A stretch of DNA of 43,830 nt from the NCBI GenBank assembly GCA_964517125.1, contig CAZFBD010000001.1, positions 8,277 to 52,106 on the forward strand, given 5' to 3'. This stretch comes from an uncultured Acidimicrobiales bacterium (GTDB lineage Bacteria > Actinomycetota > Acidimicrobiia > Acidimicrobiales > SHLQ01). Each line of letters begins with the position of its first letter. Position 1 is the stretch's first letter. Positions 8,361 to 39,925 of the stretch are shown one piece after another. The notes beneath the pieces were generated by a model. The model was not told where the DNA came from. It saw only the letters and a list, made by a program, of their open reading frames with translations, and searched no databases. The position numbers were made by a program, and so were the translations under genes.

Positions 8361-8744
8361 TCAGAGGATGGGGTACGAGCCGTCCTCGTCGTGGGTTTCT
8401 GATCCCACGAGTGCCGGGGTGAACACGCACACGATTCGCATGTCGGTATGGGCGTGCAACTCGTGGCGATCGTGCTTGTCGAGGGTGTACATGACGCCTG
8501 GGGACAGCTCGTGGCTCTCCCCAGTGGCGATGTCCTCGACCACACCTTCGCCCTCGATGATCAGGTTGGCCTCGATGTGGTTCTTGTACTCCATGAGCTG
8601 CTTCTGGCCGGCAGCGACCGTGGTCTGGGTCATGGTGAACCCGACGCCGTCGTCACGCATCAGGTAGCGGGAACTTGTCCAAACACCGGGCTTCTCGGCG
8701 TACCGTCCCTGGGCCTTCAGGTCGGACAACGAACGAACGATCAT
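8361..8744 (-). CDS. ectC: L-ectoine synthase (cupin), solitary
   Basis: C-terminal part of ORF 8361..9509 from ATG 8744 with GGAGG RBS: MIVRSL...WTSSRYLMRDDGVGFT...YKNHIEAN..IEGEG...GVMYTLDKHDRH...CVFTPALVGSETHDEDGSY. Metal-ligand Glu, Tyr and His are present. Confidence 0.92.
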   Translation of the reverse strand: MIVRSLSDLKAQGRYAEKPGVWTSSRYLMRDDGVGFTMTQTTVAAGQKQLMEYKNHIEANLIIEGEGVVEDIATGESHELSPGVMYTLDKHDRHELHAHTDMRIVCVFTPALVGSETHDEDGSYPIL

Positions 8745-8775
8745 GCGAAAACCTCCGTGGCGACGTTCGCAGACC

Positions 8776-11700
8776 CTACCTCTGCCGCGGTCGGCCCGAA
8801 ATCGCCACACCGCCATACAGCGTCCCGAGCATGATCGCCGCGGCTGCAGCGAGTACCACGAAGTCGGCGCTCCGCTCGCCGCTGCTGATGGCCAGAACGT
8901 CGGGCTTGGGGAGTGCCGCTGCGACATGAATCGTCGACGACGAATCTGCCAGCAGAGGTCCGATGTGTGTGCAACGCCAGGTTGTTCCGTTGGCATCGCA
9001 CTCCCATTCCTCCTGCGATTCGGCAGTGAGCTCCGCTGCCGCTGGTAGGTGAAGTTCGACGGTCGAGCCGTGGTCAAGGTCGATGTCGGTGAGGTTGTCG
9101 ACACGGAATGCGTACCCAACCGTGGATGCGGTTCCGACGTCGGTATAGACCGCGGCGTCTTCGAGCGATACTTCCAGAACCCGATCGGTATGCGCATCGG
9201 GACTGGTCCAGGTGAACGTTGTGGCCACCGCAGCGGAATCGAACAATTCGCCCGGCGTCGCAAAGATGACGGCGCCAGCCACCTCCTGCACGATCTCCTG
9301 ATCGGCGACCTCTCCCCCGCTGGCATCCTGCTCGGAGTTCTCTTCCTGCGCGTCTTCGGTGTTGCCCGAGTCGGCGACCTCCGTTTCACCGTCTTCGAGT
9401 TCGTCACTGTCGAGGTCTCCACCACCGACCGCTTCGGTGGTCGACGTGGCCGAGGTGCCGGCATCGGCGGGCTCGGTCGTCGATGCCGTTTCGGGATCAG
9501 CGGTTGCAAGGATCGTTGTCGTCGTCACGGCGTCGTCGGCAGCAGGCACCGTAGTGGTCTCTGGCAGATCTTCGACAATGGTGGTCGGAGCGGTGGACGT
9601 CGGCTGGTTTGCGGCCGCGACGGTTGTGGAGGTTGTTCCCGGGGGCTCCGAGGACGTCGATGTCGAAGCGACAACCGTCGAAGACGTGGATGCCACTGAG
9701 GCAACGGTGCCAGGTGCTGCCGTTGTTGATACCGATCCATCGGCGGTGTCTTGAAGGGCAGCGGCCTCGTCGTCGACCGCATCGGGAACCGTCGTTTCGA
9801 CCGACTCGCCGGGCTCCGTGGGCGTCGTGACGCCGCCATTCGCAGACAGGCCGTTGGCGTTCTCGGCTGCGTCGAAAATCGTGGTCGGAGCCGCATTGGT
9901 GGACAAGGTTGCGCCGACCACGCTGGTCGTCGTTGTGGTCTCGCCCGCCGCAGCAGAGTCTGACGGAGCGTCCGCAAGCGCACCCGCGCCGGAGATCTCG
10001 AGATCTCCACCCGCCTCGGGCAGCGGTTCCACCGTGCCCGACGGAAGATGGTTCACTGAGTTCGCCGCCAGATTCACGGTTCGTTTGCTTCCGTCCGCGA
10101 GTCGAATCTGGAGTCGTACCGGCAGGACCTCGACGCCATCGCTGAACGGACGCCAGCTTCCGGCCTTGAACTCCACGATTCCTCCGGGCTCGTCGGCTCG
10201 AAGCGGAACGGTTTGAAACTCGGCCTCTGGAGCGACCGCCGCATTGATTCGGGTGAACTTCCGCAACCCATCGTGAAGAACCCGAAAGCCGATCGATGTC
10301 GGGAGGACTTCCCTTCGGACCTCTCCCTGCGAATCGGTCCGACCCATGAAAGTCCACCGCTGTGCGTTGAGGTCGACCTGCGTGCCAACGATTGGCTCGC
10401 CCGTCGAGTCGACGACTCGGATGATCGCCTCGACCGTTGACACCTGCACGTTGCGTTCCGATGCGAGATCCTGTCGAACCTGGCTCCGAAGCCCACCCCA
10501 GCTTACGCGGAACCTGGTTCGGACGGGAAGTAGTTCAGCTTCGAGATGGCCGGTGGCGTCGGTGGAGCCGAGCGCATCCCACTCGGAACCATGCACCTCG
10601 ATCGGCACGCCGACCAGCGGGGACCCGTCGAGGGACGCAACGGCAACGCTGGCGAGCACCGTTTGGAACCGGACGACCGGATCCTTGGCAATGTCCTGCC
10701 TGATCCGAACTCGCCGCTGGCCATGCGAGACGCGGAAGGAACGGGTCTGTGGGAGCAGCTCCGTCTGGATCTGGCCGGTCTCGTCCGTGGTCCCGAGTTC
10801 GCCCCAACCGGCGCTGTCCAGCTCCACGAGCGCACCAGCCAGCGGTGCACCGGTGGAGTCAGCAAAGTCGATGGTCACCGGAAGTGTCTGGAATCGAACG
10901 CTCGAATCGGCCGAGAGCTGTTGACGGATGGTTGTGCGGCCACCGTGCGCAGCCATGGCGAAGCGCACCCGTCCCGGCAGCATTTCCCCGCTCAACATCC
11001 CGTTTGCGTCGGTCGTTCCGAGCGAGATCCAGTCGTCACCGCGGTACTCCACCGCGCCGCCTTCGACCGGGGCTCCGGTGGAGTCGTGCAACGATACCTG
11101 GAACGGTGCTGTGGCAAAGGAGACGGCGTCGGTCTTGCGCAGATCGACCGTCTGCTCGGCTCGTACACCGTCGAGCGTCATGGTGAACGGGCGACGACTT
11201 GCAAGGATCTCGATGAACAACGCCCCGGTTTCATCGGTGACGCCAACCGGCTTCCAGGTGCCCGCACTTCGGAACTGGACCGCTCCGTCAGCCAAGGGCC
11301 CGCCTGAGGGATCCGTCAGCGAGATGCCGACTGCGATCGTGGAGAACTGCACCCGTGGTTCGGTGCCAAGATCCTGACGAATGACCTGCCGAATGTCCTG
11401 ATGGACGAGTTCGACCCGGGTCTTCTTGCCGGGCATCTGGCCCTCGACGCAGCCGTCCTCGCCGGTGACACCAATCGAGTGCCACGCTTCGTCGTACTGG
11501 AAGCCGGCTGACGCTCCCGCCAGCGGAGCTCCGGTCGAGGTTTGGAGGCAGACCGACGTGGTGGTGACGACATCGGCCAGTGCTGCTGGCGCCGCTGGGC
11601 CAGCGAACAGCACGACGACGCCAACGAACATCGCCGCAACAGATGCGACCTTGGTCAGCTTTCCTCGGGGCGCTCGAACCTCGAACCGGCTGGGGTCGAC

Positions 11701-13533
11701 GTCGTGCGCCTCCGTCTTCTCGGCATTCGTATGGTGCCCAACTGCGCAATACGCGATGAGTCCGGTGCGGACCGCAGGCGAGAGGTCACCGAACTGCAGC
11801 CCGACGCGCTGATGATCGCCGCGGTCCACCAGAGAGCGGACGACACCATCGAGTTCGAGGGTCTGTTCCGCATCGCTGTTCTCCGGAAGACGCAGGGTGA
11901 TCGGCACCCGTTGACCAAGTTCGAACGGACAGGAACTGCCGTGAAGATGCGAACCGAGCCCCTTGACCGCAAGGTCGACGACATGCACGAGATGGCCATC
12001 GATGACCGCCACGAGATCCGTGGAGAGTCGGAAACTGGCACGTCGCTGCTTTCGGCGGACGGCGACCTGCAGCACGTCGACCACAGCGACGATCACCATG
12101 AGGCCCACTCCCAAGGCGATGATGCGTCCGGACATGGAGAATCGGGGAAGGATTCGCGGCCAGATCAGGGTCAGTCCCCGTGCCACCACAGCGAGATCAA
12201 GAACGATCAGCACAACCGACGCCAGGCGCATCTTCTCGAGCGCGCCGAAGCCTGAACCAGATGTCTTGTAGAAGGCCACCACACGGCGACGAAGCCCGAG
12301 CACCGTAGCGAAGGCGTTGAGATCTGCCGCAAGTGTCCGCCACGCCTGTCGAGTCCAATCCCCACGCTCCATGGTTCCCCGCGCCAAAAGCCGGTTGGCA
12401 CGCACCATGAGGAGTTGTGCGGGTACCCAGACGGCCGCCCAAACACCGCCGGTCCCGCTGTAGGGAACCGCCCCTGTGAGGAGGATCGCGATCAACAACA
12501 GGGTCAGGCTCAGCTGGCGGACGCTGCTCGCAAATCCAAGGGCCAGCGCCAGGTGATCAAGTCGCTGGCGGCGACTCAGGCCAGCGTGACGCAGGGGGTT
12601 CTCGGGAGTGCGGAAGACCCGAAGCAGTTCGATTGCGGAGCGACGCCGAACCATCAGGTACGCCCCGAGCGAGTCCGGTGCGGCTGCGTGCACCACGACC
12701 GGTTCAGCGCAGTAGTGGCTCTTCCATCCGTTGCCCTGGAGGCGGATCATGGCTCGTTGCAGCGATGCCTGATCGTTTGGATCGAACCCGCCACTGCTGG
12801 CGATTGCAAGCGTCCGGACCATGGAACCACCGCCACGCCACGACGCCTCTCCCCTCGAACCAAGGCGGGGCTGAACGACCCGACTCTGGAAGGCGTCTTC
12901 GTCTCGCCCGCCTCGCAGGTGAGCGAAAGAGTCCGTGTTCAACTGGCCAATGCCGGCCTGTACGTAGGCCACGCCTGCGTCGGAAAACGTTGGGGCAAGC
13001 GCCTCGATGCAATTGGGCATCGGCACCTGCCCCGCTTCAAGCCAGAAGGCAAACGGGCTCGTTCGGGCCCCGGCCCAGAAGCCATCGACGTGGTTTCCCT
13101 CGGCGACCACGACGTCCACGTCGAAGCTCTGCGTGATTTCGAGCAGTTCCGGCCGTGCGGTCTGCATGGTCACGATCGTTCGACGGTGGTGACGGACGCT
13201 GCGGCAGCTCACCAGGGTTCGTTCCAGCTCCTCAGGCGTGTGGAACGTACACGTGACGACGATGTCGACGTCGCGATCAACGGTTTCGGGATGTGATTCA
13301 GGCTCTGCCTGCGGTGCTGATGTGTCCCACGACAGCATCGCCCGGAGGCCGAACTGTGCGAGACCCCAGCCCTCGAGAACGAGGAACGGGACAGCGATCC
13401 ACCAGGTGCCGAGGCCACCGACGAGGAGCCATCCAAGATGCACGATGCCAACGGCACTCGCTGCCGTCGCGTGCATGCGAATGCTGCGATCTTTCTGTTG
13501 TACCGCGGCCGCCCGCGTCGGTACCGTTGCCAT
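8776..13533 (-). CDS. 1585-aa fusion: degenerate BcsA-like GT2 + TM helices + PilZ + internal signal/TM + 75-aa repeats + Thr/acidic stalk + C-terminal membrane or sortase-like anchor
   Basis: Aligns by eye to the BcsA scaffold (VDIVV, VAYVQ, GGF, GWKSHY, APDSLGAYL). PilZ-like RRASFR...DLAVKG. Repeat boundaries at 11337, 11109, 10884, 10659, 10434 and 10209. C-terminus LAISSG + hydrophobic stretch + RPRQR. Confidence 0.85.
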   Translation of the reverse strand: MATVPTRAAAVQQKDRSIRMHATAASAVGIVHLGWLLVGGLGTWWIAVPFLVLEGWGLAQFGLRAMLSWDTSAPQAEPESHPETVDRDVDIVVTCTFHTPEELERTLVSCRSVRHHRRTIVTMQTARPELLEITQSFDVDVVVAEGNHVDGFWAGARTSPFAFWLEAGQVPMPNCIEALAPTFSDAGVAYVQAGIGQLNTDSFAHLRGGRDEDAFQSRVVQPRLGSRGEASWRGGGSMVRTLAIASSGGFDPNDQASLQRAMIRLQGNGWKSHYCAEPVVVHAAAPDSLGAYLMVRRRSAIELLRVFRTPENPLRHAGLSRRQRLDHLALALGFASSVRQLSLTLLLIAILLTGAVPYSGTGGVWAAVWVPAQLLMVRANRLLARGTMERGDWTRQAWRTLAADLNAFATVLGLRRRVVAFYKTSGSGFGALEKMRLASVVLIVLDLAVVARGLTLIWPRILPRFSMSGRIIALGVGLMVIVAVVDVLQVAVRRKQRRASFRLSTDLVAVIDGHLVHVVDLAVKGLGSHLHGSSCPFELGQRVPITLRLPENSDAEQTLELDGVVRSLVDRGDHQRVGLQFGDLSPAVRTGLIAYCAVGHHTNAEKTEAHDVDPSRFEVRAPRGKLTKVASVAAMFVGVVVLFAGPAAPAALADVVTTTSVCLQTSTGAPLAGASAGFQYDEAWHSIGVTGEDGCVEGQMPGKKTRVELVHQDIRQVIRQDLGTEPRVQFSTIAVGISLTDPSGGPLADGAVQFRSAGTWKPVGVTDETGALFIEILASRRPFTMTLDGVRAEQTVDLRKTDAVSFATAPFQVSLHDSTGAPVEGGAVEYRGDDWISLGTTDANGMLSGEMLPGRVRFAMAAHGGRTTIRQQLSADSSVRFQTLPVTIDFADSTGAPLAGALVELDSAGWGELGTTDETGQIQTELLPQTRSFRVSHGQRRVRIRQDIAKDPVVRFQTVLASVAVASLDGSPLVGVPIEVHGSEWDALGSTDATGHLEAELLPVRTRFRVSWGGLRSQVRQDLASERNVQVSTVEAIIRVVDSTGEPIVGTQVDLNAQRWTFMGRTDSQGEVRREVLPTSIGFRVLHDGLRKFTRINAAVAPEAEFQTVPLRADEPGGIVEFKAGSWRPFSDGVEVLPVRLQIRLADGSKRTVNLAANSVNHLPSGTVEPLPEAGGDLEISGAGALADAPSDSAAAGETTTTTSVVGATLSTNAAPTTIFDAAENANGLSANGGVTTPTEPGESVETTVPDAVDDEAAALQDTADGSVSTTAAPGTVASVASTSSTVVASTSTSSEPPGTTSTTVAAANQPTSTAPTTIVEDLPETTTVPAADDAVTTTTILATADPETASTTEPADAGTSATSTTEAVGGGDLDSDELEDGETEVADSGNTEDAQEENSEQDASGGEVADQEIVQEVAGAVIFATPGELFDSAAVATTFTWTSPDAHTDRVLEVSLEDAAVYTDVGTASTVGYAFRVDNLTDIDLDHGSTVELHLPAAAELTAESQEEWECDANGTTWRCTHIGPLLADSSSTIHVAAALPKPDVLAISSGERSADFVVLAAAAAIMLGTLYGGVAISGRPRQR

Positions 13534-14919: not shown

Positions 14920-17045
<2,126 letters not shown>

Positions 17046-17049
<4 letters not shown>

Positions 17050-17510
17050 CCGATCGACCGTTTCGCATTCTTGGACTGCAGCAGATCGCCATCGGCAGCA
17101 CGGACCTGGGCGCCCTCCGTTCGCTGTGGGTCGACACGCTTGGCGTCGAGAAGGTTGGCGACTACACCAGCGAGTCCGAGAACGTGCAGGAAGACATCCT
17201 GCGTCTCGGAGCCGGAGCACATGCGGTCGAGGTCGACCTGATGCAGCCGCTCGATCCCGACGCTCGCCCGAAGGTGCACGAGCCGAGCCTCAACCACATC
17301 GGGCTGTGGGTCGACGACCTTCCGGCGGCCGTCGAGTGGCTCACCGAATTGGGCATGCGCTTCACCCCCGGCGGAATTCGCCCGGGGGCCGCAGGTCACG
17401 ACATCGTGTTCGTCCACCCGAAGGGGAACGACGAGTTTCCGCTGTCGGGAGAGGGAGTGCTGATCGAACTGGTTCAGGCCCCGACCGAGGTCATTGCCGC
17501 GCTCGGCTGA
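17046..17510 (+). CDS. mce: VOC-family protein, probable methylmalonyl-CoA epimerase
   Basis: ATGA overlap with the mutase stop; [17 protein letters not shown]...[11 protein letters not shown]...FVHPKG...GVLIELVQ (true coding part of ORF 15126..17510). Confidence 0.85.
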
Positions 17511-17535
17511 CCGGCTCGGGGCGAACGAACGTTGC

Positions 17536-19296
17536 CTATGCGGGCTCGATCACCACGACGACATCGCCGGCGCCGACGCTGTCGCCCTCGGCAACACGAA
17601 CGTCGCTGACGGTTCCGGTGACGTCGCTGTCGATGTTGTTCTCCATCTTCATGGCTTCGAGCACCACGAGCGCATCGCCAGCTTCCACGGAATCGCCGGC
17701 TGCCACGTTCACACGAACGATCGTGCCCTGCATGGGGACTGCGATCTCTCCGGTGCCCGCTCCCCCACCTGAACCGCTGCTGGCGGCGGCTCGGCGACGC
17801 TTTGGTGCAGCAGCAACCGCTCCACCGGTGCTTTCGGGAACCCACATGCGAACGTCGAAACGCCGGCCATCGACCTCGACCGGGACCGTCTTCATGACTC
17901 GTGGGACGTCGTCGTCGGTCTCGGGCGCTGCTGTTGCCGTGGACTTCACGCCAGTGAGGTCCAGGCCGTTCTCGACCCAGTTGGTGGAGTGAGTGACCGA
18001 ACCGAATTCGGGTGACGCAAGAATCACGCGATCCGCTGGGATCGTGGTGGCGACACCCTCGATCACGAGTTCGTCGAGGGCGCGCAGAGCCCGACGGATT
18101 GCCGTGGGACGGTCATGGCCCCACACGCACAGCTTGCCGACGAGGTTGTCGTAGTACTGGCTGATTTCGTCGCCCGACTCGTATCCGGTGTCGAAGCGTG
18201 TGCCGAACCCGTCGGGAGCCCGAAGCGTCGTGATGGGGCCCGGCGAGGGCAGGAAGGCGCCTTCGGCCGGGTCCTCGGCGTTGATGCGGATTTCGATTGC
18301 GTGCCCGGTGATGGTGATCTGTTCCTGGGTGAAGGGCAGTTCGTCACCGTTCGCGACGCGCAGCTGCTGCTCGACCAGATCGACACCGGTGACGAGCTCG
18401 CTGACCGGATGCTCGACCTGTAGCCGGGTGTTCATCTCGAGGTAGTAGAACTTGCCGTCTTCGTAGAGGAACTCGACGGTGCCAGCGTTGGTGTAGTCGC
18501 AGCCTCGGGCGACAGCGATCGCGGCGGCGCTCATGTCGTCGAGGATGGCTGGGTCGATTCCGGGCGCTGGGGCTTCTTCGATGAGCTTCTGATGGCGACG
18601 CTGGGCCGAGCAGTCTCGGGTGCCGAGCGAGACACAGTTGCCGTGCGAGTCGGCGAGGATCTGGACCTCGACGTGGCGGGGGTTGCTCAGGTAGCGCTCC
18701 ATGTAGATCTCGTCACGCCCGAAGTAGGCCAGGGCTTCGCGCTGGGCTGATTCGATTGCTGCTTCGACCTCGTCGGCGCCGCCGACGACCTTCATGCCGC
18801 GACCGCCACCGCCATAGGCGGCCTTGATCGCAATTGGGTAGCCGTGTTCTTCGGCGAATGCATGAACCTGGGCGGGGTCGGTGATGAGGTCGGTCGTGCC
18901 CGGCACGCCGTGCACGTCGACCTTCTCTGCCGCTTCGCGAGCCGAGATCTTGTCGCCCATGACTTCGATCGCTTCAGGCGGTGGACCAATGAACGCCACG
19001 CCCATGTCGGCGATCGCCCGGGCGAAGTCGGCGTTCTCGGAGAAGAACCCGTAGCCCGGGTGGACACCCTCGGCGCCGCTTTCGCGGATGATCTCCAACA
19101 TGCGTTCGGTGTTCAGGTACGACTCTGCCGCCGTTTGGCCGCCCAGGGCGTAGGCCTCGTCAGCAAGCCGAACATGCAGTGCGTCCCGATCCAGTTCGGA
19201 GTACACGGCCACCGTCTGGACCCCGAGCTCGCGGCAGGCCCGAATGACCCGAACGGCGATTTCGCCACGATTGGCAACAAGAACCTTCTGGAACAC
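17536..19296 (-). CDS. Acetyl/propionyl-CoA carboxylase alpha subunit (biotin carboxylase + BCCP)
   Basis: KVLVANRGEIA, HPGYGFFSEN, GGGGRGMK, RDCSAQRRHQK, EMNTRLQVEH, EAMKM biotin site. Confidence 0.96.
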   Translation of the reverse strand: MFQKVLVANRGEIAVRVIRACRELGVQTVAVYSELDRDALHVRLADEAYALGGQTAAESYLNTERMLEIIRESGAEGVHPGYGFFSENADFARAIADMGVAFIGPPPEAIEVMGDKISAREAAEKVDVHGVPGTTDLITDPAQVHAFAEEHGYPIAIKAAYGGGGRGMKVVGGADEVEAAIESAQREALAYFGRDEIYMERYLSNPRHVEVQILADSHGNCVSLGTRDCSAQRRHQKLIEEAPAPGIDPAILDDMSAAAIAVARGCDYTNAGTVEFLYEDGKFYYLEMNTRLQVEHPVSELVTGVDLVEQQLRVANGDELPFTQEQITITGHAIEIRINAEDPAEGAFLPSPGPITTLRAPDGFGTRFDTGYESGDEISQYYDNLVGKLCVWGHDRPTAIRRALRALDELVIEGVATTIPADRVILASPEFGSVTHSTNWVENGLDLTGVKSTATAAPETDDDVPRVMKTVPVEVDGRRFDVRMWVPESTGGAVAAAPKRRRAAASSGSGGGAGTGEIAVPMQGTIVRVNVAAGDSVEAGDALVVLEAMKMENNIDSDVTGTVSDVRVAEGDSVGAGDVVVVIEPA

Positions 19297-27253: not shown

Positions 27254-27853
27254 TCAGATCACGATCGTGAGGGCATCTGGCACGACACGCCACTGAATCC
27301 GACCATCGATTGCGATTGTCTCGCCGTCGACTTCGAGCCGATCCCCCGACTGCACGAGGAGCTCGCCAGACGTCTGCCGGCGAATGCTGATCTGCGGATG
27401 TGGAACGTGCAGACCGCTCGGGAGGCGTGACCGCGCCTTGAACCGGTCGCCCAAACTCAGGCCGGATTCGACGACATCGATTCGGCCGTCGTTCGGGTGT
27501 CCTCGTGGCGCGACATTCCAGGCGTCTCGAAAAGAGGCGTTCATGAGCGCAACCGTTGTGCCCGACCAGAGCCGCCGCCGACGGACGACGTGCGCCACGA
27601 ACACCGTGCTGGTATCGCCGTACTCGAGCACTCCCACATCGATGGGGAGACGGACCCGCTCGGTATCGGAGCGCAGCTCGGCGGCCGTCGTGCGCCCGCC
27701 CACCGTCCGGTGAAGATCGCCGCCGGTGAGCCCCACGAGGCGATGCTCGTCCGGGTTCCAGAGCCGAGCCAGCTCCTGGTCAGATCCTGCGATGGGAGCG
27801 TCGGCCGGCAGCGAGCCGGGACTCCCCCAATCCTCGCCACGCTCGATGGTCAC
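27254..27853 (-). CDS. Diacylglycerol kinase/YegS-like protein with reduced N-terminus
   Basis: RLPIDVG, APRGHPNDGRIDV, LEVDGE, VVPDAL; usual position next to helY. Confidence 0.7.
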   Translation of the reverse strand: MTIERGEDWGSPGSLPADAPIAGSDQELARLWNPDEHRLVGLTGGDLHRTVGGRTTAAELRSDTERVRLPIDVGVLEYGDTSTVFVAHVVRRRRLWSGTTVALMNASFRDAWNVAPRGHPNDGRIDVVESGLSLGDRFKARSRLPSGLHVPHPQISIRRQTSGELLVQSGDRLEVDGETIAIDGRIQWRVVPDALTIVI

Positions 27854-30420
27854 GGAGCCGGGGCCTCGTCGTCATCCACCGGGGCGTCGACGATGCCCCG
27901 CTGCATCATGGTGAGTGCGGTGGACGCAGCCTTCCGGGTCGTGGGGTTCGGCGCCACGACCGCCACCTGGGAGACAAGATCAAGGACCTGTTTCATGGAT
28001 CGCACGAAGTCCCCACCAGAGAGGTCTTCTTCGTCGAGGATGTCGCCCAGCCCTCCCCCAGCCGCCCAGCCATGCGCTGCGGCGAACAGACCGGGGTCCA
28101 TGTCCCGGCTCTCCGGGAGTCCGTAGGCGGACTCCATACGCTGGATCTTGCGCAACGTGACTTCCATCCCCCACATCGCAGATTCGGCAGCCGGCGTGGA
28201 GTACCACTCGGGCGGCGGGTCGTCGTTGCGCCGTCGTTCGTACACGAATCCGGAAATGAGCCCAGCCAATGTGGCTGGATCGTGGCCATCGAGATGCCCG
28301 TCGAGCAGCGACTCCACCAGAACCAGATCGAGCTCATGGAACGTGCCGAGGAGGATGCGGCCGCGTTCGGTGAGCTCCCACTTGTCGATGTGCCCAAGTT
28401 CGGTGAGCAAACCAACAACCGCTCCGAACCGTTCGGTCAGTTGGCCCCGCCGTCGCTCGATTCGGGCCTCGACGCGCCGGAGCTCGCGCCGGGCCTGCGT
28501 GCGCTCCTCGCTTCGCCAGGGAGACGCATGGTCCTGTGACGCTGCTGGCGGATCGTCGTGGCCGTTGGTCGATGCTCCGCCGGACCGGTTGGACTTGTTG
28601 CCCTTGCCCTTGTTGCCCTTGGTCTTGTTGCTCTTTCGTTTGACGGCTCGTAGCTGTCCCACGAGGTCGTGCTGGTGCGACCGGCTGTGCGGGTTGAACG
28701 GTTCGGGAAGGCGCAGCGCCTTGACGACGACCGGCGGAACGGTGAGTGCGTCGGCGTCGAGCGTGTGGGCCTCGCCATCGTCGTCGAGCACCTCGACCTT
28801 GACCGCCTTGCGCCGCCAGGCCACGGACAGGACTGCGACCGTGCGGCCGACGTCGATGGCGTCGCCGGGCTTCAGCCGTCCGAGGGCTGAATCGATGGCG
28901 CCGCGATCGCTGGTGTCCGCCTCGGTGGGTGTCGCCGTGCCCTCGCCGAGACGGGCAAGGAGCTGATCCCGCCGCTGGTTGAGCGACTCGATCGCCCGAT
29001 TCGACTGGAACTGACCGAACGAGCGTGTCATGAGCTCTTCGGCGTCCTTGCGGGTGTAACGCTCCACAAGGTGGCAGGTCATGTTGTACGTCGGGCGGAA
29101 CGCGGATCGCAGCTCGAACGCCCGGGACTTTGCGAGACCCGCGACGTCGTCGAAGGTCGTGAACGGTGTCCAGAGGACCACCGCATGCCCCTCGTCATCG
29201 ATTCCACGACGTCCGGCCCGGCCGGTGAGCTGGGTGTAGTCGCCCGGTGAAAGTGTTTCGTGATGCTCGCCCGTGAACTTGGAGAGCTTCTCGATCACCA
29301 CAGTCCTCGCCGGCATGTTGATGCCAAGTGCGAGTGTTTCGGTTGCGAAGACCGAGCGCAGCAGCCCCATCGTGAAGAGTTCCTCGACGGTCTCTTTGAA
29401 GAGCGGCACGATTCCGGCGTGGTGGGCGGCCAGACCAGCTTGCAACCCGGCCAGCCAGGAATCCCATTCGAGGGCGGCTCGGTCGGTCTCGCTGAGGTGC
29501 CCGGTCTTGAGCATGACGTGTTCGGTGATGCGCTGGGCTTCGGCATCGTCGGTGAGACGGATACCTGCGCTTCGGACCGCCGACACCGCGTCTTCGCATC
29601 CGGCTCTGCTGAAGATGAAGGTGATCGCTGGCAGCAGGTTGCGTCGTCGCAGCTCGGTGATGACCTCGGCACGCCGGGGTGTGCGCCACGGTCGTCGTTG
29701 TGGCGGTCCACCTTTGCGTCGGTTGTCTCGGCCGCCGCTGCGTGCAGGGTCGTATCGGCGACCCTCGGGATTGCTGCGGCCCTTCTTGAGCGTGGGGATC
29801 AGATGCAGGCGTCCGTTCTGCTTCTCGCTGATGCAGTAGTTGTTCTGCAGCCTGACCGGCCGGGTGGTCTCGGTGACCGAAGCGCACGGAGCGTGCACGC
29901 TGGAGATCCACTCGGCCAGTTCGTCCGCGTTGGAAACAGTGGCCGACAGCGCCACGAGGCGGATGTGTGCGGGCAGGTGGATGATGACTTCCTCCCACAC
30001 CGGACCGCGGTAGTTGTCCTGCAGGTAGTGCACCTCGTCCATGACGACGACGTCGGTGCTGTCCAGCCGCTCCGGCTGGGAGTACAGCATGTTTCGCAGG
30101 ACCTCGGTCGTCATGACCACGGCGCTGGCATCACCATTGATGGAGTTGTCGCCCGTGAGCAGGCCGACGGAATCGCGTCCCATCCATCCGCGCAGGTCAC
30201 GGAACTTCTGGTTGGAGAGCGCCTTGATCGGAGTGGTGTACAAGCCGCGACGACCGACCGATGCCGCTCTGGCGATGGCGTATTCGGCAACCCAGGTCTT
30301 GCCACTGCCGGTCGGAGCCGACACAACAACGGAGCGCCCGTCGTCCAGGTGCTCCATGGCCTCGACCTGGAACCGGTCCAGGTCAAAGGAACGAGGCGGC
30401 CCGAACAAGGGATCCGACAT
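27850..30420 (-). CDS. helY: Ski2-like DEAH-box RNA helicase HelY
   Basis: APTGSGKT, TPIKALSNQK, DEVH, LSAT, ATETLALGINMPA, QLTGRAGRRG; C-terminal DSHCT-like region. Confidence 0.95.
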   Translation of the reverse strand: MSDPLFGPPRSFDLDRFQVEAMEHLDDGRSVVVSAPTGSGKTWVAEYAIARAASVGRRGLYTTPIKALSNQKFRDLRGWMGRDSVGLLTGDNSINGDASAVVMTTEVLRNMLYSQPERLDSTDVVVMDEVHYLQDNYRGPVWEEVIIHLPAHIRLVALSATVSNADELAEWISSVHAPCASVTETTRPVRLQNNYCISEKQNGRLHLIPTLKKGRSNPEGRRYDPARSGGRDNRRKGGPPQRRPWRTPRRAEVITELRRRNLLPAITFIFSRAGCEDAVSAVRSAGIRLTDDAEAQRITEHVMLKTGHLSETDRAALEWDSWLAGLQAGLAAHHAGIVPLFKETVEELFTMGLLRSVFATETLALGINMPARTVVIEKLSKFTGEHHETLSPGDYTQLTGRAGRRGIDDEGHAVVLWTPFTTFDDVAGLAKSRAFELRSAFRPTYNMTCHLVERYTRKDAEELMTRSFGQFQSNRAIESLNQRRDQLLARLGEGTATPTEADTSDRGAIDSALGRLKPGDAIDVGRTVAVLSVAWRRKAVKVEVLDDDGEAHTLDADALTVPPVVVKALRLPEPFNPHSRSHQHDLVGQLRAVKRKSNKTKGNKGKGNKSNRSGGASTNGHDDPPAASQDHASPWRSEERTQARRELRRVEARIERRRGQLTERFGAVVGLLTELGHIDKWELTERGRILLGTFHELDLVLVESLLDGHLDGHDPATLAGLISGFVYERRRNDDPPPEWYSTPAAESAMWGMEVTLRKIQRMESAYGLPESRDMDPGLFAAAHGWAAGGGLGDILDEEDLSGGDFVRSMKQVLDLVSQVAVVAPNPTTRKAASTALTMMQRGIVDAPVDDDEAPAP

Positions 30421-31205
30421 CAGGTGGTGACGGCTGCTTTCCGCTTTCTGCGTGCGTGGATGATGCCAAACAGCACCGACGCCTCATAGAAGATGTACAT
30501 GGGCACCGACAGCACCATGAGGGTGATGGGGTCGCCGCTTGGCGTCAGAACCGCGACAAGCACGACGATGCCGACGACCGCGTATCGCCTGCCCGACTTG
30601 AGCGTCTGGGTGGAAACGGCGCCAATGAGTTGCATGAAGATGAGGACCAGAGGGAACTGGAAACCGAGCCCGAACGCAACAAGCATCTTGACCACGAACG
30701 AAATGTACGGGCCAGGTGTGAGGAGGCTGTCGATTCTGTCGCCACCAAAGTTCAACAGGAAGTCGAGGGCTCGCGGAATGCTCCAGTAGGCCAGTGCGGA
30801 ACCGAACAGAAACAGCGTTGCTCCGCTGAACACGAACGGAATCGCCCAGCGTCGCTCATGTGGGTAGAGCCCGGGAACGATGAACTTCCACAGCTGCCAG
30901 AGAACGACGGGTATCGCAAGGATGAAGCCGCCGTAGGCGGCGATGGTGAACACGAGACTGAACTCTTCGAGCGGCTCGGTCTGGAAGAGCCGGCAGTTCT
31001 CCTGTGAGACGAACCCGTCGTTGTCCCGCTCCGGGAGCGATTGGCAGTAGGGCTCGATGATCGCATCGATGATCTGACCCCGGAAGATGAAACACACGAC
31101 AGCACCGACGGCCACGGCCATCGCGCTGCGGATGATTCGGGTACGGAGCTCCTCGAGGTGCTCCATGAGACTCATTTCGCCCTGGGGGCGTTCTTCGGTG
31201 CTCAT
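30420..31205 (-). CDS. tatC: Twin-arginine translocase TatC
   Basis: MSLMEHLEELRTRI, WQLWKFIVPGLYPHER, FQFP, TPSGDP. Confidence 0.96.
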   Translation of the reverse strand: MSTEERPQGEMSLMEHLEELRTRIIRSAMAVAVGAVVCFIFRGQIIDAIIEPYCQSLPERDNDGFVSQENCRLFQTEPLEEFSLVFTIAAYGGFILAIPVVLWQLWKFIVPGLYPHERRWAIPFVFSGATLFLFGSALAYWSIPRALDFLLNFGGDRIDSLLTPGPYISFVVKMLVAFGLGFQFPLVLIFMQLIGAVSTQTLKSGRRYAVVGIVVLVAVLTPSGDPITLMVLSVPMYIFYEASVLFGIIHARRKRKAAVTT

Positions 31206-31750
31206 CAACGATCGCTCGGCGCGCCTTCGTCGGGAACATCGACATCGGCGACTGCGGCAGCCGCGGTGTCCGCCGCAGAATCGACACCGTCAGAGGACGC
31301 CGATGCCATCGTTGTTGGTGCCGGGTCGGGCGGTGCGGGCCGAGAAGACAAGGTGGTCTCCTTGGCAGCGAAGGGATCGGCAGCAGCATTGACGACCGGC
31401 GTGGCCGGTGTTGCCGTGGCGATGGACTCGGCGCGGGCCTGTCGTGTTTCCGGATCATCTCCGGACACTGCATCGTCGGCTTGGGGAGTTTCGATCTCTG
31501 GGAGCTCGGCATCAGAGGTCACGTCGGCTGTGGGGGCGACAGCTGCTGCTGCCGTTGCCGAGGTGACCGCCTTGCCGACCGGATCATCCAGTGCGGTCTT
31601 GAGCTCTCGCTGAAATCCCGAGGAGATCTTGCGGAACTCCTTCATGACCTGACCGGCCTGACGGGCAGCTTCAGGGAGCTTGCCCGGGCCGAGCACAACG
31701 AGTGCCACCAGAAAGATGATGAGAAGTTCCCCACCACCGATGTTCAACAT
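31205..31750 (-). CDS. tatB: Twin-arginine translocase TatB (TatA/B family)
   Basis: MLNIGGGELLIIFLVALVVLGPGKLP, amphipathic helix and long acidic tail. Confidence 0.85.
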   Translation of the reverse strand: MLNIGGGELLIIFLVALVVLGPGKLPEAARQAGQVMKEFRKISSGFQRELKTALDDPVGKAVTSATAAAAVAPTADVTSDAELPEIETPQADDAVSGDDPETRQARAESIATATPATPVVNAAADPFAAKETTLSSRPAPPDPAPTTMASASSDGVDSAADTAAAAVADVDVPDEGAPSDR

Positions 31751-31802
31751 GCTGCGAGTCTACCCCGGAGCACAGACGGCAGTCGTTCGTGTAGCGCTGG
31801 TT

Positions 31803-32138
31803 TCAGGTCCCGTTGCTGATCGCGGTGAGTGCTGCGGCAGTCGCATCCTCGTCATTGAGCATGCGATGGAAATCCAGGATGTCGTCGTGGCTGATCTGCC
31901 GTCCGCTGCGAGCCTCAAAGAGCTCGGCTGGCAACGTCCAGGTGTCCATTTGGACTCCGGATGCGACGAGCAGGTCGATCGTGCGATGTTCCGCAGGCTT
32001 GACGACCACCATCGAACAGATGGGACAGGTGAATCGGTATTCACCGCGGTCGTCGTCCAGACAGACGCGAACGCGGACGTCGGCTGTGGTCAGCTCAACG
32101 TCGCCGCAATCTGGACAGCTTGCTCGAATGGTTGCCAT
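31803..32138 (-). CDS. Hypothetical zinc-ribbon protein
   Basis: CPDC...FTCPIC, then HRTIDLLVASGV and ISHDDILDFH. Confidence 0.75.
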   Translation of the reverse strand: MATIRASCPDCGDVELTTADVRVRVCLDDDRGEYRFTCPICSMVVVKPAEHRTIDLLVASGVQMDTWTLPAELFEARSGRQISHDDILDFHRMLNDEDATAAALTAISNGT

Positions 32139-32171
32139 GTGCGTTTACCCCACTTTGCTTACAAGGAACTA

Positions 32172-32198
32172 TTCGGCCCGCACACGAAAACCCTTGAG
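32172..32198 (-). promoter_or_regulatory. Candidate sigma28/FliA/WhiG-type promoter
   Basis: Minus strand CTCA-N17-GCCGAA(TA). Confidence 0.65.
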
Positions 32199-32322
32199 GA
32201 TCGGCTGGACTATTTCACCTCCCGGTAACTGGGCCGTCACGACCATCCGGCCTGGGCCCATCACCACGGGTTCCTCGCGGAGAAACCAGCGTTTTCAACG
32301 AAAAGTTGCGAAGATGGGGGGT

Positions 32323-33042
32323 ATGTCGATGCGTCTTCCCTCTCGCCTCAACCCTCCGATCGGTTTCGCTCACCGGGGAGCGAAAGCCCATGCTCCGGAG
32401 AACACGTCCGAAGCCTTCGACCTGGCGGTTCGTCTGGGGGCTTCAGGGATCGAGTCCGATGTCTGGATCAGCGCCGACGGAGGGCTCATGTTGAACCACG
32501 ACCGCACGGTGGGGCTCCGGCGGCGGGCGATCTCTTCGCTGGAGCGCTCCGACCTGCCCGACACCATGATCACCCTTCCCGAACTCCTCGATCGCATCCC
32601 CGACACACTGGATCTGTCGATCGACATCAAGGACGACGATGCCATGGTGCCGCTGCTCGACTGGGCGGGAACCCTCTCCCCCGTCACCCGCAGTCGGCTG
32701 TTCCTGTGTCATCCGGATTGGACGAAACTGGCCGAGTGGCGCTCGCTCGACCCGCACGTCCGACTGATCGACTCCACGAACATGAAATCCATGACCGACG
32801 GTCCGGAACGGCGCGCCGCGCAGCTTGCCGACGCCGGCATCGACGGAGTGAACCTCCGTCAACAGGAATGGAGCGGTGGCATGGTCACCTTGTTCCATCG
32901 GTTTGAGCGGTTGTGTTTCGGTTGGGACGCCCAACATCGTCGAATTCTCGACAACCTGCTCCGGATGGGGATCGACGGCGTGTTCTCGGACCACACCGAC
33001 GTGATGATGGAAGCGATCGCCGAATCGGCTACAGGGAGCTGA
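32323..33042 (+). CDS. Glycerophosphodiester phosphodiesterase family protein
   Basis: FAHRGAKAHAPENT, GIESDV...DG...NHD, IDIK, GIDGVFSD. Start approximate. Confidence 0.9.
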   Translation: MSMRLPSRLNPPIGFAHRGAKAHAPENTSEAFDLAVRLGASGIESDVWISADGGLMLNHDRTVGLRRRAISSLERSDLPDTMITLPELLDRIPDTLDLSIDIKDDDAMVPLLDWAGTLSPVTRSRLFLCHPDWTKLAEWRSLDPHVRLIDSTNMKSMTDGPERRAAQLADAGIDGVNLRQQEWSGGMVTLFHRFERLCFGWDAQHRRILDNLLRMGIDGVFSDHTDVMMEAIAESATGS

Positions 33043-34168
33043 TCTCGCCCAGCGGCCAAATCCGCAGGAACGCACGCCCAACAATGAGGTCTTCGGTGAT
33101 CGGACCGAAGAACCTGGAATCCGATGATGAGCCGCGATTGTCGCCCATCATGAACAGCTGATCGTCGCCCAGGGTGCAACGCCCGGGGGTCCGAGGCTGG
33201 TTGACACAGCGTTCGTCCCAGATGTCGACCGACAGTGCGTCGTTCGCTGACGGGCCGGCGAGGAAGGCATTCTGTGGGTCCAGATACGGCTCTTCGAGCA
33301 GCAGTGCGTCTTCAGCGGTCTCGCCCGCACCCCAGATGTAGAGCCGGCCGTCGGAGCGCACCTCGATCGTTTCTCCCGGGAGAGCGATTGCGCGCTTGAT
33401 CAGATCGTCGGTGTCGCCCGGTGTACCGGGGAGCTTTTTGAAGACGACGAGATCGCCCCGTCGGACCTCGTGCAGGCGGTAACTGACCTTGTTCACCAGG
33501 ATTCGGTCGCCCTTGTTGACCGTGGTCTCCATGGATTCCGAGGGGATCCAGAACGCTTGCAGGACGAAGGCCTTGATCAGCAGTGCCACGAGCAGGGCCG
33601 AAACAATGACGGCCAGCCACTCGAGGACCGTTCGGATGTCGGACGAACGGAAGCCTTCGGTTGTGGCATCGGCCTCGATCATGACCGGGTCGGCGACGGG
33701 TGCATCGGTGAGGGTGTCGCCCTGGGCCTGCTGTAGGAGCGCTGCCGTGGACGAGTCGGAACTCATCAGTGCGGTCGGCCGATCGGTGGGCAGCGGGTGG
33801 ACGCCCATTGCTGCGGGTTGTGTGGGAACCGGTTCCGGCGACGGCGACATGGTTGGGGTATCGGCACCGAGGCGGCCAACCACAAGTGGCGATGTGGGCG
33901 CAACTCGCGGCGGCGCGGATGCGGGCCCGGCGGGCGGTTCCGTCGACGGCTGTGGTGCAGCGGTGGTTGGAAGGCTCGGAGCGGCTGCTGGTACAGAAGG
34001 GATCGACGTTGCTGGCCCAGATGCTGGCATCGATGGGACAGGCGGGGCCGTGGCGGCTTGCGGAGGTGTGGTCTGACCAATGGGCGCTTCGTCGTCGGAG
34101 GCTCGCATGAGCGCCTCGGCCACGAGGCCCTTGATCCAGTCGGTGTCGTCAGCAGACGAACTGCTCAT
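33029..34168 (-). CDS. lepB: Signal peptidase I with long Pro/Ala-rich N-terminal extension
   Basis: TM + AFWIPSESM (catalytic Ser), GDRILVNK, DLIKRAIALPG (Lys), GDNRGSSSDSRFFG. Start inferred at ATG 34168. Confidence 0.92.
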   Translation of the reverse strand: MSSSSADDTDWIKGLVAEALMRASDDEAPIGQTTPPQAATAPPVPSMPASGPATSIPSVPAAAPSLPTTAAPQPSTEPPAGPASAPPRVAPTSPLVVGRLGADTPTMSPSPEPVPTQPAAMGVHPLPTDRPTALMSSDSSTAALLQQAQGDTLTDAPVADPVMIEADATTEGFRSSDIRTVLEWLAVIVSALLVALLIKAFVLQAFWIPSESMETTVNKGDRILVNKVSYRLHEVRRGDLVVFKKLPGTPGDTDDLIKRAIALPGETIEVRSDGRLYIWGAGETAEDALLLEEPYLDPQNAFLAGPSANDALSVDIWDERCVNQPRTPGRCTLGDDQLFMMGDNRGSSSDSRFFGPITEDLIVGRAFLRIWPLGEISSL

Positions 34169-34247
34169 CTGCTCATTGTCATCAGCCACAGCAAGTAGAG
34201 CGTACTGGCCAACTCTGGCCCTGTGATGTATGCCTGTTCGGACGACG

Positions 34248-35198
34248 TCAGTTGGCGTATCGGGCGCGAACCCGCTCCCGCGCGGCCGCAAGATCAAGGT
34301 GCGAAAGCTCCGGATCGAGGTGCACGACCTCGGCGTCCGCTCCGAGGCGAAGGAGAAGTCGCTCGAGCCACCTGGTGGACGAGACCGGGAGCCGGACCTC
34401 CACCAATTGGTCGTCGACCGGAGTGAGCTCGTCATAGGGCGTGTTGTCGAGAAGGCGGAGACGGTCCGACGCGAGCCGCAGGACGGCTCTGGGGGCGCTC
34501 TCGATGGAGAACGGGGTCTCGCTCAACGTGTCGGCGGTGTGGCTGACTGGTTCGGTCGTCATGACCAACTGCTCGATGCGGTCGAGGCGGAACACCCGCT
34601 CGCCTTGCGCACGGTGGCAATAGGCGGCCACGTACCAGTGTCCCTCGGACGGGAAGAACTTGAAGGGTTCGATGCGCCGTTCGGTGCGTTCGTCGTGGGC
34701 GAACGAGTAGTACCGAATGTCGACGCAGGTCCCGTTGTTCACCGCGTCTCGCAGATCCTGGAGAACCGAGTCCTTGGCCGCCCCAAGATTGACCTCGAGC
34801 GTGTTTGCCTCGATCCCGGTTGCGAGACGCAGCTTGGTGAGCCCGCGGGCCAGCGCACCGGCCTCGTCCTGGCGGTCGAAGGACAAGACGGTCTCGCCGG
34901 CGGTCAACAGCGCCAGAGCCTCGCCACCCGACAGCTTCATGGGACGCGAGAACCAGTCGGCATAGTTGATCCACACCAGACCGTCGTCGATCGTGACCTC
35001 GATGAGCGTGTCGGGGGTGTATGGCGGGACGCCGACGTAGAACACGACGTCCTGCAGGTCATCGAGCAGCAGGTCGCGGGGATAGTCGAAGCGCTCCGAG
35101 ATGGCATCGAGGGATGCCCCATCCTGGGCAACGATCCAGGGGATGGCGGCAACGAGACGCGCCATACGGTCGGTTGCATTGATCCGTCCGGCGCTCAT
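34248..35198 (-). CDS. pafC: WYL-domain transcriptional regulator PafC
   Basis: RMARLVAAIPWI HTH, PPYTPDTLIEV, GHWYVAAYC, FRLDRI; follows pafB. Confidence 0.92.
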   Translation of the reverse strand: MSAGRINATDRMARLVAAIPWIVAQDGASLDAISERFDYPRDLLLDDLQDVVFYVGVPPYTPDTLIEVTIDDGLVWINYADWFSRPMKLSGGEALALLTAGETVLSFDRQDEAGALARGLTKLRLATGIEANTLEVNLGAAKDSVLQDLRDAVNNGTCVDIRYYSFAHDERTERRIEPFKFFPSEGHWYVAAYCHRAQGERVFRLDRIEQLVMTTEPVSHTADTLSETPFSIESAPRAVLRLASDRLRLLDNTPYDELTPVDDQLVEVRLPVSSTRWLERLLLRLGADAEVVHLDPELSHLDLAAARERVRARYAN

Positions 35199-36115: not shown

Positions 36116-36154
36116 AGGCGCAGTGTACTGATCTGGCCGACGGGGGCCGTGTAC

Positions 36155-37513: not shown

Positions 37514-37594
37514 TGATGACCACCGTAGTCGGCAGCCTCCGCCGACGAGCGGTCAAGCAGTTTGATCCTCGGCGAGACGCCGCGATTTGGGTGC

Positions 37595-38170: not shown

Positions 38171-38179
38171 GGATACCGG

Positions 38180-38206
38180 ATCGGCCCGCAGGCCGGCAAA
38201 GTTGAG
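38180..38206 (-). promoter_or_regulatory. Candidate sigma28/FliA/WhiG-type promoter
   Basis: Minus strand CTCA-N17-GCCGAT, 9 nt before ATG 38170. Confidence 0.62.
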
Positions 38207-38226
38207 GAATTGTGCGGTGGGCGCCG

Positions 38227-39707: not shown

Positions 39708-39898
39708 TGGCCACCCTTTTGGATATAGCTCTTCACAAAGTCCTCGGCATTCGTCTCGAGGACTTCGTCGATCTCGTCGAGCAGATCGTCCATGTCAGCC
39801 TTCAGCTTCTCGCCGCTCTCCGCTGCAGTCGGGATTTCCTCGACCTGTTCCTGCTCATCGGGTGCACTCGTGCGTTTCCGCTGTTCACGCTCGGCCAT
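39704..39898 (-). CDS. pup: Prokaryotic ubiquitin-like protein Pup (GGQ form)
   Basis: DDLLDEIDEVLETNAEDFVKSYIQKGGQ. Confidence 0.98.
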   Translation of the reverse strand: MAEREQRKRTSAPDEQEQVEEIPTAAESGEKLKADMDDLLDEIDEVLETNAEDFVKSYIQKGGQ

Positions 39899-39925
39899 TG
39901 GTTCCTCCTACGTGTCGCCACACAG

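Follow-up and report, generated by a model that had tools for sequence, protein, structure and literature searches.

We begin by considering one long gene in a window of 43,830 nucleotides from an uncultured marine Acidimicrobiales bacterium (contig CAZFBD010000001.1, positions 8,277 to 52,106); the window, throughout, is this whole stretch of DNA. The open reading frame at 8776-13533 (-) runs for 1585 codons without interruption in DNA of 64% G+C, and its product appears to join a module derived from a BcsA-type glycosyltransferase with a PilZ domain to a large, repeat-bearing ectodomain. An earlier reading, made from the letters alone and called here the sequence-only reading, had described a frame open for 4.7 kb in which about 600 N-terminal residues on the BcsA layout are followed by a membrane crossing, repeats, a threonine-rich acidic stalk, a beta domain and a C-terminal anchor. 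All of these parts have been located (the repeats measure 76-77 residues), and on the BcsA layout the Pfam matches to GT2 and PilZ, a phmmer match to the BcsA structure 7lby and the alignment with BcsA agree. The features of the gene are as follows.

8776..13533 (-): whole coding sequence, 1585 amino acids and stop; the start MATVPTRAA agrees with the starts of homologues
13330..13467 (-): pair of N-terminal membrane helices, about residues 23-68; in the alignment they fall on the final two N-terminal helices of E. coli BcsA
12634..13281 (-): GT-A (GT2) core, predicted to be catalytically dead, residues 85-300; the most conserved domain
12058..12633 (-): interface helices together with membrane helices 5-8 (residues 301-492); contains GDWTRQAWRT (391-400) and a degenerate gating loop (416-421)
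11743..12057 (-): PilZ domain, residues 493-597; placed by Pfam and by its RxxxR motif
11563..11664 (-): ninth hydrophobic helix, signal-peptide-like, residues 624-657; candidate signal-peptidase site
10207..11562 (-): six tandem repeats of 76-77 amino acids, residues 658-1109; probably beta-sandwich, with matches below or near cut-offs
9889..10206 (-): degenerate further beta segment, residues 1110-1215; common to short-form paralogues (FxDG..LPxR...RxADG)
9259..9888 (-): low-complexity stalk, residues 1216-1425; recognised by composition, poorly conserved
8899..9258 (-): C-terminal beta-type domain, residues 1426-1545; conserved cysteine pair, weak match to DUF11
8779..8898 (-): C-terminal membrane anchor, hydrophobic at residues 1555-1579, with the basic tail RPRQR

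The N-terminal module is homologous to BcsA and yet far from a normal member of that family. Residues 171-365 match Glyco_trans_2_3 (PF13632) with 31.3 bits against a Pfam cut-off of 27, which gives homology to the GT2 superfamily, and in a phmmer search of the PDB residues 236-548 match E. coli BcsA (7lby, E 1.2e-8); the NCBIfam model for CelA/BcsA (TIGR03030), however, scores 41.3 bits, so far under its cut-off of 699.1 that the protein falls outside the family which the model defines. Does the module keep the residues that a processive synthase needs? We align its N-terminal 640 residues by MAFFT with the BcsA of E. coli K-12 and with relatives both active and dead, and compare them again in a table of 159 related proteins anchored on a hidden Markov model (HMM). 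At the aligned positions the D,D,D,QxxRW signature of processive GT2 synthases is absent from the window protein: DDG is replaced by M123-Q124-T125 (DNA 13159-13167), DxD by E166-A167-G168 (DNA 13030-13038), TED by A256-S257-L258 (DNA 12760-12768) and QRxRW (QxxRW) by V295-R-R-R-S299 (DNA 12637-12651). HAKAGN reads GNHVDG, the first GT-A motif, TYNE, reads TCTFH, and the gating-loop motif FxVTxK has become R416-R-V-V-A-F421. The by-eye alignment of the sequence-only reading (DDG to MQT, HAKAG missing, DAD to EAG, TED to ASLQ, QRxRW to VRRRS) is thereby upheld, substitution by substitution and in the same places, and no intact equivalent of a catalytic aspartate or of QxxRW is found in the sequence alignment with BcsA and the active relatives. 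These relatives (about 610-680 amino acids, about 30% identical to the window protein over the N-terminal module) carry VDVFVPTYDE, LDDGRRP, HAKAGN, LDADHVP, VQTPHxFYNxDS, FWCGS, TED, QRxRWA and FRVTPK. What the window protein has in common with the active enzymes are residues of the fold type (Q192, N199, D201, S202, H205, W232, G234, R240, G269, W270 and R296), and GDWTRQAWRT is an invariant motif specific to its own family. Judged from the lost motifs, the module cannot be a canonical synthase.

The loss is not confined to one protein. Motifs were counted in 124 of the 159 proteins (50%-identity representatives), namely those in which all six motif regions are aligned; the four catalytic motifs are all missing in 79, one is present in 15, two or three in 3 and all four in 27, proportions that do not describe GT2-PilZ proteins generally, as the 159 were chosen by similarity to a dead query. 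The gating-loop pattern F.VT.K goes with the catalytic motifs, being present in 25 of the 27 proteins with all four and in 0 of the 94 with zero or one, while 78 of the 79 fully dead proteins retain the two PilZ motifs. In a FastTree tree built after removal of the motif columns, the dead proteins make up one large clade that includes the window protein, apart from a few separate degenerations within the active clade; the dead forms are thus one old, large clade, and short-tailed dead forms of about 600-650 amino acids stand at its base. A tail of at least 150 residues after the PilZ domain is found in 61 of the 79 fully dead proteins and in 1 of the 27 with all four motifs. This link reflects ancestry, the short-tailed dead forms being basal, so that catalysis was lost first and the tail was added later inside the clade. 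A repeated co-evolution of the two changes was considered and rejected: motif state changes 5 times and tail 13 times on the tree, and none of the phylogenetically independent pairs differs in tail.

A relic would be expected to decay, and the codons of this family do not. We estimate the ratio of nonsynonymous to synonymous substitution rates (dN/dS) by the Nei-Gojobori method on codon alignments of the window gene and four other loci; most pairs are saturated (dS 1.2-4), and only the least saturated pair, L015-L017 (dS 0.60-1.04), is used for the argument. For this pair the ratio is 0.056 in the GT core, 0.083 in the membrane part, 0.087 in PilZ and 0.103 in the repeats; the stalk has values of 0.4-1.4 over the six pairs that were scored. 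Constraint is strongest in the dead GT core, which has the lowest value of all domains, and the suspicion of relaxed selection on it is dispelled. Mean pairwise identity among six close long forms is 75% in the GT core, 75% in the interface and membrane region, 70% in the C-terminal domain, 68% in the linker and ninth helix, 64% in PilZ, 60% in the repeats and 35% in the stalk. From its residues the GT2 module is a conserved pseudo-enzyme, neither an active synthase nor a relic; the sequence-only reading had called it a pseudo-enzyme, and motif loss across a conserved clade together with the lowest dN/dS in the dead core now stands behind that term.

We next consider the PilZ domain (PF07238), found by Pfam at residues 493-597 with 35.9 bits against a cut-off of 22.5. 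The arginines of the RxxxR motif bind cyclic di-GMP (c-di-GMP) in characterised PilZ domains; here they are kept as R498...R502 (DNA 12028-12042), and Q496, R497, R498 and R502 are invariant across 17 family members. The second motif, [D/N]hSxxG, reads D520-L-A-V-K-G525, in which D520 and G525 are invariant in the close family and the serine is replaced by alanine; the sequence-only reading had given both motifs in this form (RxxxR kept, DxSxxG as DLAVKG). Among relatives without DxD, the serine position of DxSxxG holds threonine in 54, serine in 39, alanine in 16 and asparagine in 2. In the relevant passages of a review of PilZ proteins, PilZ domains within fusion proteins are described as retaining c-di-GMP binding (10.1101/814665). 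Because the catalytic and gating residues are lost and the PilZ arginines kept, we regard the N-terminal part as a putative pseudo-synthase with c-di-GMP binding as its remaining plausible activity.

What follows the PilZ domain is a helix of unusual character. Residues 624-657 open with a basic n-region (RGKLTK), continue with a hydrophobic run and end in G645-P646-A-A-P-A-A651-L652-A653, after which comes D654; in the close family P646 never varies and G645 hardly does. The helix looks like an internal signal peptide, with the n-h-c order and a box of the signal-peptidase I type. Since the GT and PilZ domains of BcsA are cytoplasmic, it must run from inside to outside. A hydrophobic segment at most 110 residues after PilZ is found in 72 of the 75 relatives with at least 150 residues beyond that domain, and 55 of 70 such segments close with A.A, compared with 148 of the 610 hydrophobic runs found elsewhere in these proteins (Fisher p 5e-19, which is not an independent-sample probability because the sequences are related and rich in alanine).

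The six repeats beyond this helix are contiguous, each matching a 77-position HMM with an independent E-value of at most 2.8e-24, and they are probably beta-sandwich domains, as suggested by Pfam matches to CarboxypepD_reg (E 1.3e-4, under the cut-off), Big_1 and MG4, all under or near the cut-offs. A profile of the six repeats searched against the PDB gives nothing significant, the best entry being a transthyretin-like protein (E 0.2); Pfam searches with single repeats and with the C-terminal domain return sub-threshold matches only, among them DUF11 for residues 1426-1545 (E 0.027, under the cut-off). The stalk of 210 residues is 19% T, 17% A, 10.5% E, 10% S and 9% D, with a net charge of -41. 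Repeat 1 holds a co-varying cysteine pair, C662/C695; in the C-terminal domain C1512 is found in 10 of 11 aligned sequences and C1521 in 10 of 10. Across the family, the cysteines of the pairs C662/C695 and C1512/C1521 come and go together, as expected of putative extracytoplasmic disulfides. A C-terminal hydrophobic anchor occurs in 39 of the 75 long-tailed relatives. No LPXTG-type signal (L[PA]xT[GAS]) is found near the C-terminus of the window protein, which has the helix and basic tail instead; the sole such string near a C-terminus in nine long forms, LAVTS in P0004, is not conserved. These sequence features are the ones expected of a surface protein whose chain crosses the membrane. Among shorter proteins, a search with the C-terminal domain returned P0166 alone, a fragment of the same protein (100% identity), and the repeats occur beyond the family, at similar lengths in a word-indexed search, only in P0167, whose precomputed Pfam domains include numerous Ig-like or related families, and in P0168, to which NCBI gives the name of a prepilin-type N-terminal cleavage/methylation domain protein of Acidimicrobiia.

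How widely is this architecture distributed? A word-indexed search finds 17 proteins including the window protein itself. Six are full-length homologues of 1489-1589 amino acids with 64-69% identity in the N-terminal module; P0005 (1070 amino acids, 67% identity) ends within the repeats, and three more distant homologues have 1440-1477 amino acids and 47-48% identity. A HMMER search with the N-terminal 640 residues against 1.84 billion cluster representatives returns 1003 proteins at E<=1e-3, 447 at E<=1e-10 and 96 at E<=1e-30. Two family-specific peptide patterns, searched in one genome per species of the GTDB set, find 24 loci, of which 23 are titled as metagenome-assembled genomes (MAGs) of Acidimicrobiia, Acidimicrobiales or Acidimicrobiaceae and 1 as a Chthoniobacterales bin; two of the genomes have two paralogues. 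Of 300 other genomes of the class, sampled evenly, 18 have a match at E<=1e-40, with identities of 28-34% throughout (the unpublished genome G212 is among the 18), and from this sample we take the family to be patchy within Acidimicrobiia and the long form to be rare. One Acidimicrobiia genome, G025, has the dead module in four copies; three lie in open frames of 2015-2183 codons, and a pair of these three is about 5 kb apart. Public names of the relatives are "hypothetical protein", repeat-derived names and one composite automatic name. The sequence-only reading had known of no description of this architecture, and full-text literature searches, with subscription journals and supplements outside their coverage, likewise found none of the architecture or of a dead GT2-PilZ protein; the passages on BcsA, Alg44 and other fusions in the PilZ review make no mention of a dead synthase (10.1101/814665).

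The genomic context of the related loci adds a second line of information. Eleven of the 24 loci (L022-L026, L029-L032, L035 and L036) have a six-gene operon in the same gene order, and three more (L028, L034 and L038) have variant or contig-truncated versions of it. The operon begins with a short paralogue of about 870-1000 amino acids, which has the same dead module, one or two repeats and a threonine-rich tail, without the C-terminal anchor. Its genes, in order (example coordinates L024 7854-18177), are as follows.

Gene 1: dead GT2-PilZ short-form protein
Gene 2: Peptidase_M73/TasA (camelysin)-like protein
Gene 3: SipW-type signal peptidase domain (TIGR02228, 62.8 bits, cut-off 51.85), N-terminal, followed by GGDEF and EAL; 993 amino acids
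Gene 4: secreted-type protein of 203 amino acids
Gene 5: second TasA-like protein
Gene 6: second SipW-type peptidase (67.3 bits), fused to DUF2341; more than 958 amino acids

In the peptidase fusion the GGDEF and EALIR motifs are intact, and a signal peptidase fused to c-di-GMP turnover domains was not met in the literature searches, which had the same coverage. By context, these operons would tie the family to c-di-GMP-controlled surface proteins, an argument by analogy with the paralogues. The long forms (the window, L015-L019 and L021) are without the operon genes, and their neighbours are common within lineages, not between them. In the window genome a search for TasA/camelysin-like proteins (PF12389) gives 0 matches at E<=0.1, TIGR02228 gives two sub-threshold matches only (28.4 and 21.5 bits against 51.85), and tblastn with the L024 operon proteins finds only the window gene itself and generic GGDEF-EAL domains; at the window locus no TasA/SipW-type partner is seen among the neighbours scanned. 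In another long-form lineage, a gene for an HDOD-domain signalling protein lies just downstream of the long gene (L018 13310-15265 (+), L019 5512-6411 (+)); at L018, 4 of the 5 neighbouring frames scanned have no Pfam match and may be wrong frames.

Combining these results, we propose, with a probability of about 0.6, that the protein is a platform that binds c-di-GMP and passes its state across the membrane to its own ectodomain, whose processing or display it may control. Part 1 (residues 1-600) would descend from a BcsA-type processive GT2 enzyme which lost the residues for UDP-sugar binding, for transfer and for the c-di-GMP gating loop, and which retained the bundle of membrane helices, the residues that define the fold and a PilZ domain whose arginines putatively bind c-di-GMP. 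Part 2 (residues 654-1585) would be exported by means of the signal-peptide-like ninth helix that ends in A-L-A. If the chain is cut at AxA, it becomes a classical surface protein with an N-terminal array, a flexible acidic spacer, a membrane-proximal domain and a C-terminal anchor, the layout of a monoderm surface protein whose array would be held off the cell by the acidic, threonine-rich spacer. We think this cleavage likely because the uncut form would have both ends in the membrane and a disordered stalk at the tip of the loop, an odd design. The PilZ platform would then couple cytoplasmic c-di-GMP to the ectodomain through AxA processing, through retention or clustering, or through conformation. 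From the domains and motifs of the chain we infer that it binds c-di-GMP, is exported and cleaved, acts at the surface or in adhesion, and links the second messenger to the ectodomain. The interpretation offered by the sequence-only reading, a pseudo-enzyme reused as a c-di-GMP-sensing platform for an adhesin, stands in its pseudo-enzyme, its PilZ signature, its surface-protein signals, a real junction and purifying selection; c-di-GMP sensing, the adhesin and the mechanism of tether, release or surface contact are its conjectural parts.

Several points weigh against this proposal. The alanine in place of the DxSxxG serine, a trait of the window subclade, may affect c-di-GMP affinity, and the absence of a catalytic pocket is read from the alignment alone. 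The fold assignments of the repeats and of the C-terminal domain are all under curated cut-offs, and the p value for A.A carries the relatedness and composition named above. The link between motif loss and tail comes from shared ancestry, the tail differing in 0 of 4 phylogenetically independent pairs. Finally, because the window genome is without TasA/SipW partners and the long forms share no neighbour across lineages, the context backs a role of the family only by analogy with the paralogues.

It is useful to set the protein beside the known systems. BcsA (E. coli K-12 b3533; PDB accession codes: 7lby, 4hg6) has the same GT2 core, interface helices, membrane helices 5-8 and PilZ RxxxR in the same order of parts; the window protein, however, is 19% identical to it, has lost D,D,D,QxxRW, HAKAGN and FxVTxK, has two N-terminal helices where BcsA has four, and adds the ninth helix and a 930-residue ectodomain. 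The sequence-only reading had noted no bcsB, bcsC or bcsZ in the window; indeed no bcs gene is among the neighbours scanned, neither BcsB (PF03170) nor GH8/BcsZ (PF01270) is found in the 94.9%-complete genome, and no BcsA above the cut-off is present there. The nearest intact relatives are uncharacterised active GT2-PilZ proteins (about 610-680 amino acids; among them P0060, P0101 and P0138), with 26-30% identity over the N-terminal module, two N-terminal helices and the same PilZ; they differ in keeping DDG, DAD, TED, QRxRW and FxVTxK and in ending 8-131 residues after PilZ (the tail is shorter than 150 residues in 26 of 27). In the LapD-LapG-LapA system of Pseudomonas a degenerate membrane receptor for c-di-GMP governs the release of a large repeat adhesin by a protease; it works with a degenerate GGDEF-EAL protein, separate polypeptides, a diderm envelope and a calcium-dependent cysteine protease. 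The likeness to the window protein is one of logic only, since the domains are unrelated (dead GT2 and PilZ here) and the putative cleavage would be at a signal-peptidase-type site inside one polypeptide. The TapA-SipW-TasA system of Bacillus subtilis resembles the short-form paralogue operon in its TasA/camelysin-like proteins and SipW-type peptidases, a likeness of the paralogues and not of the window gene, whose genome is without these genes; the Bacillus system, as we take it, lacks the peptidase fusions to GGDEF-EAL or DUF2341 and the leading dead GT2-PilZ gene, both of which the paralogue operons have. Alg44, like other non-catalytic membrane partners of exopolysaccharide synthases that have PilZ, also links c-di-GMP to a surface polymer, but it has an N-terminal PilZ with an HlyD-like part and works with an active synthase (10.1101/814665). 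In the window protein the domain belongs instead to a dead synthase joined to a protein ectodomain.

A more specific form of the proposed platform makes the protein a monoderm counterpart of LapD/LapG/LapA in one polypeptide, in which the dead synthase would act as an inside-out c-di-GMP transducer that gates the signal-peptidase cut at AxA. We consider this form doubtful. In it a housekeeping peptidase would cut the window protein, and dedicated SipW-like peptidases, one of them with GGDEF-EAL, would serve in the paralogue operons; the freed ectodomain would be displayed on its own C-terminal anchor in the long form or passed to TasA-like fibres in the short form.

Other explanations have to be compared with the c-di-GMP platform. 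The most serious is that the BcsA-derived module is a passive one, a bulky membrane anchor or an export leader in which c-di-GMP takes no part. The catalytic motifs and the c-di-GMP-operated gating loop are all gone, the serine of DxSxxG is alanine in the window subclade and no partner genes stand at the locus, all of which such an anchor would allow; yet an anchor does not need a cytoplasmic GT core that is the most conserved part of the chain (75% identity, dN/dS 0.056), nor PilZ motifs kept in 78 of 79 dead relatives, nor the invariant cytoplasmic motifs GGRDEDA and GDWTRQAWRT, and we hold it to be unlikely. Less likely again is a dead paralogue that keeps the channel and lends c-di-GMP control or an export path to an active GT2 enzyme without PilZ. 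Such an enzyme does exist in the genome (G000, contig C53, locus L013, 1306-2976 (+)), of the processive type and with YNE, DD, DAD, TED and QQHRW intact; the membrane and interface region is conserved like the GT core (75%), and the acceptor-side residues W232, G236-S237 of FFCGS and R296 of QxxRW are kept. The two genes, however, lie on different contigs, the acceptor-stacking tryptophan of QxxRW is lost in the whole clade, and a partner of this kind leaves the 930-residue ectodomain unexplained.

That the module is still an active glycosyltransferase with non-canonical residues, for instance the acidic cluster of GGRDEDA, seems to us very improbable. A few GT-A enzymes work without DxD, and the GT core has an invariant D211 and conserved E212-D213; but GRDEDA aligns with GRHEQS of the active relatives, so it offers no new site, the nucleotide-binding aspartates, the metal-binding DxD, the catalytic base in TED and the QxxRW positions are all replaced by residues that are not conserved across the clade, the glycine at the third DxD position is invariant in 17 close family members, and the CelA model scores 41 bits against 699. 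There is finally the matter of the junction near 11650, since the window comes from a MAG of 158 contigs and the frame could be chimeric through misassembly, or could owe its length to a frameshift or sequencing error that merges two genes. This artefact was tested and is rejected with near certainty. The architecture recurs in six proteins of 1489-1589 amino acids and three of 1440-1477 from other assemblies and sources, NCBI, ENA and Logan assemblies among them, and codon-level purifying selection is seen on both sides of the junction. We compared Logan contigs from four seawater-metagenome runs of one study over 10900-12400: a contig of X1, possibly the source sample, covers the whole interval, one of 4199 nucleotides from a second sample (X2 record 6) covers 11291-12400 across the junction with zero differences, and one from a third (X3 record 9) covers 11481-11732, also with zero differences. 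The junction is therefore no chimera, the contigs of the second and third samples bridging it without differences.

The c-di-GMP platform, if true, has consequences beyond this gene. The enzymes of c-di-GMP synthesis and breakdown greatly outnumber its receptors, a gap that the window genome shows with 35 GGDEF matches against 4 PilZ matches, of which the window protein is the best. A BcsA-derived pseudo-synthase with only its PilZ module kept and a surface protein attached would represent a new kind of c-di-GMP effector and a clear case of a processive glycosyltransferase turned pseudo-enzyme, in a family that is large (79 of the 124 best-aligned representatives are fully dead). Should the signal-peptidase form hold, second-messenger-gated cleavage of a signal peptide would be a new control of bacterial surface proteins. 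The Acidimicrobiia are an abundant marine and soil lineage with, to our knowledge, almost no experimental surface biology, and the family together with its paralogue operon gives a testable hypothesis for the switch of uncultured actinobacteria to attached life.

We close with the surroundings of the gene. The genome is a MAG of 4.76 Mb, 94.9% complete, and the module is single-copy in it. No Rfam family is found in the window and hence no c-di-GMP riboswitch upstream. The neighbours are metabolic: an FGE-sulfatase-like gene upstream, a P5CR-like gene, and genes for a methylmalonyl-CoA mutase, a glyoxalase-fold protein and a biotin carboxylase. An ectoine-synthase-like gene (EctC, cupin) at 8361-8750 (-) begins about 25 nucleotides past the stop of the large gene on the same strand, so that co-transcription is possible; no ectA or ectB is seen among the neighbours scanned. 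At 14920-19296, on mixed strands, lie the methylmalonyl-CoA mutase with a B12-binding domain, the glyoxalase-fold protein (probably an epimerase) and the biotin carboxylase with a biotinyl domain, a block that is syntenic with L015 and L017. A signal peptidase I (Peptidase_S26, 143 bits) with an N-terminal extension of about 270 residues is encoded at 33029-34435 (-), between genes for a GDPD phosphodiesterase and the Pup-proteasome; it was considered as a dedicated partner and rejected, being LepB-type, amid Tat and Pup-proteasome genes and 20 kb off. The region 27850-43171 is otherwise of a housekeeping kind, with a DSHCT-type DEAD-box helicase, TatC, TatA/B, a WYL/WCX regulator, two Pup-ligase genes (PafA/Dop type) and a proteasomal AAA ATPase.

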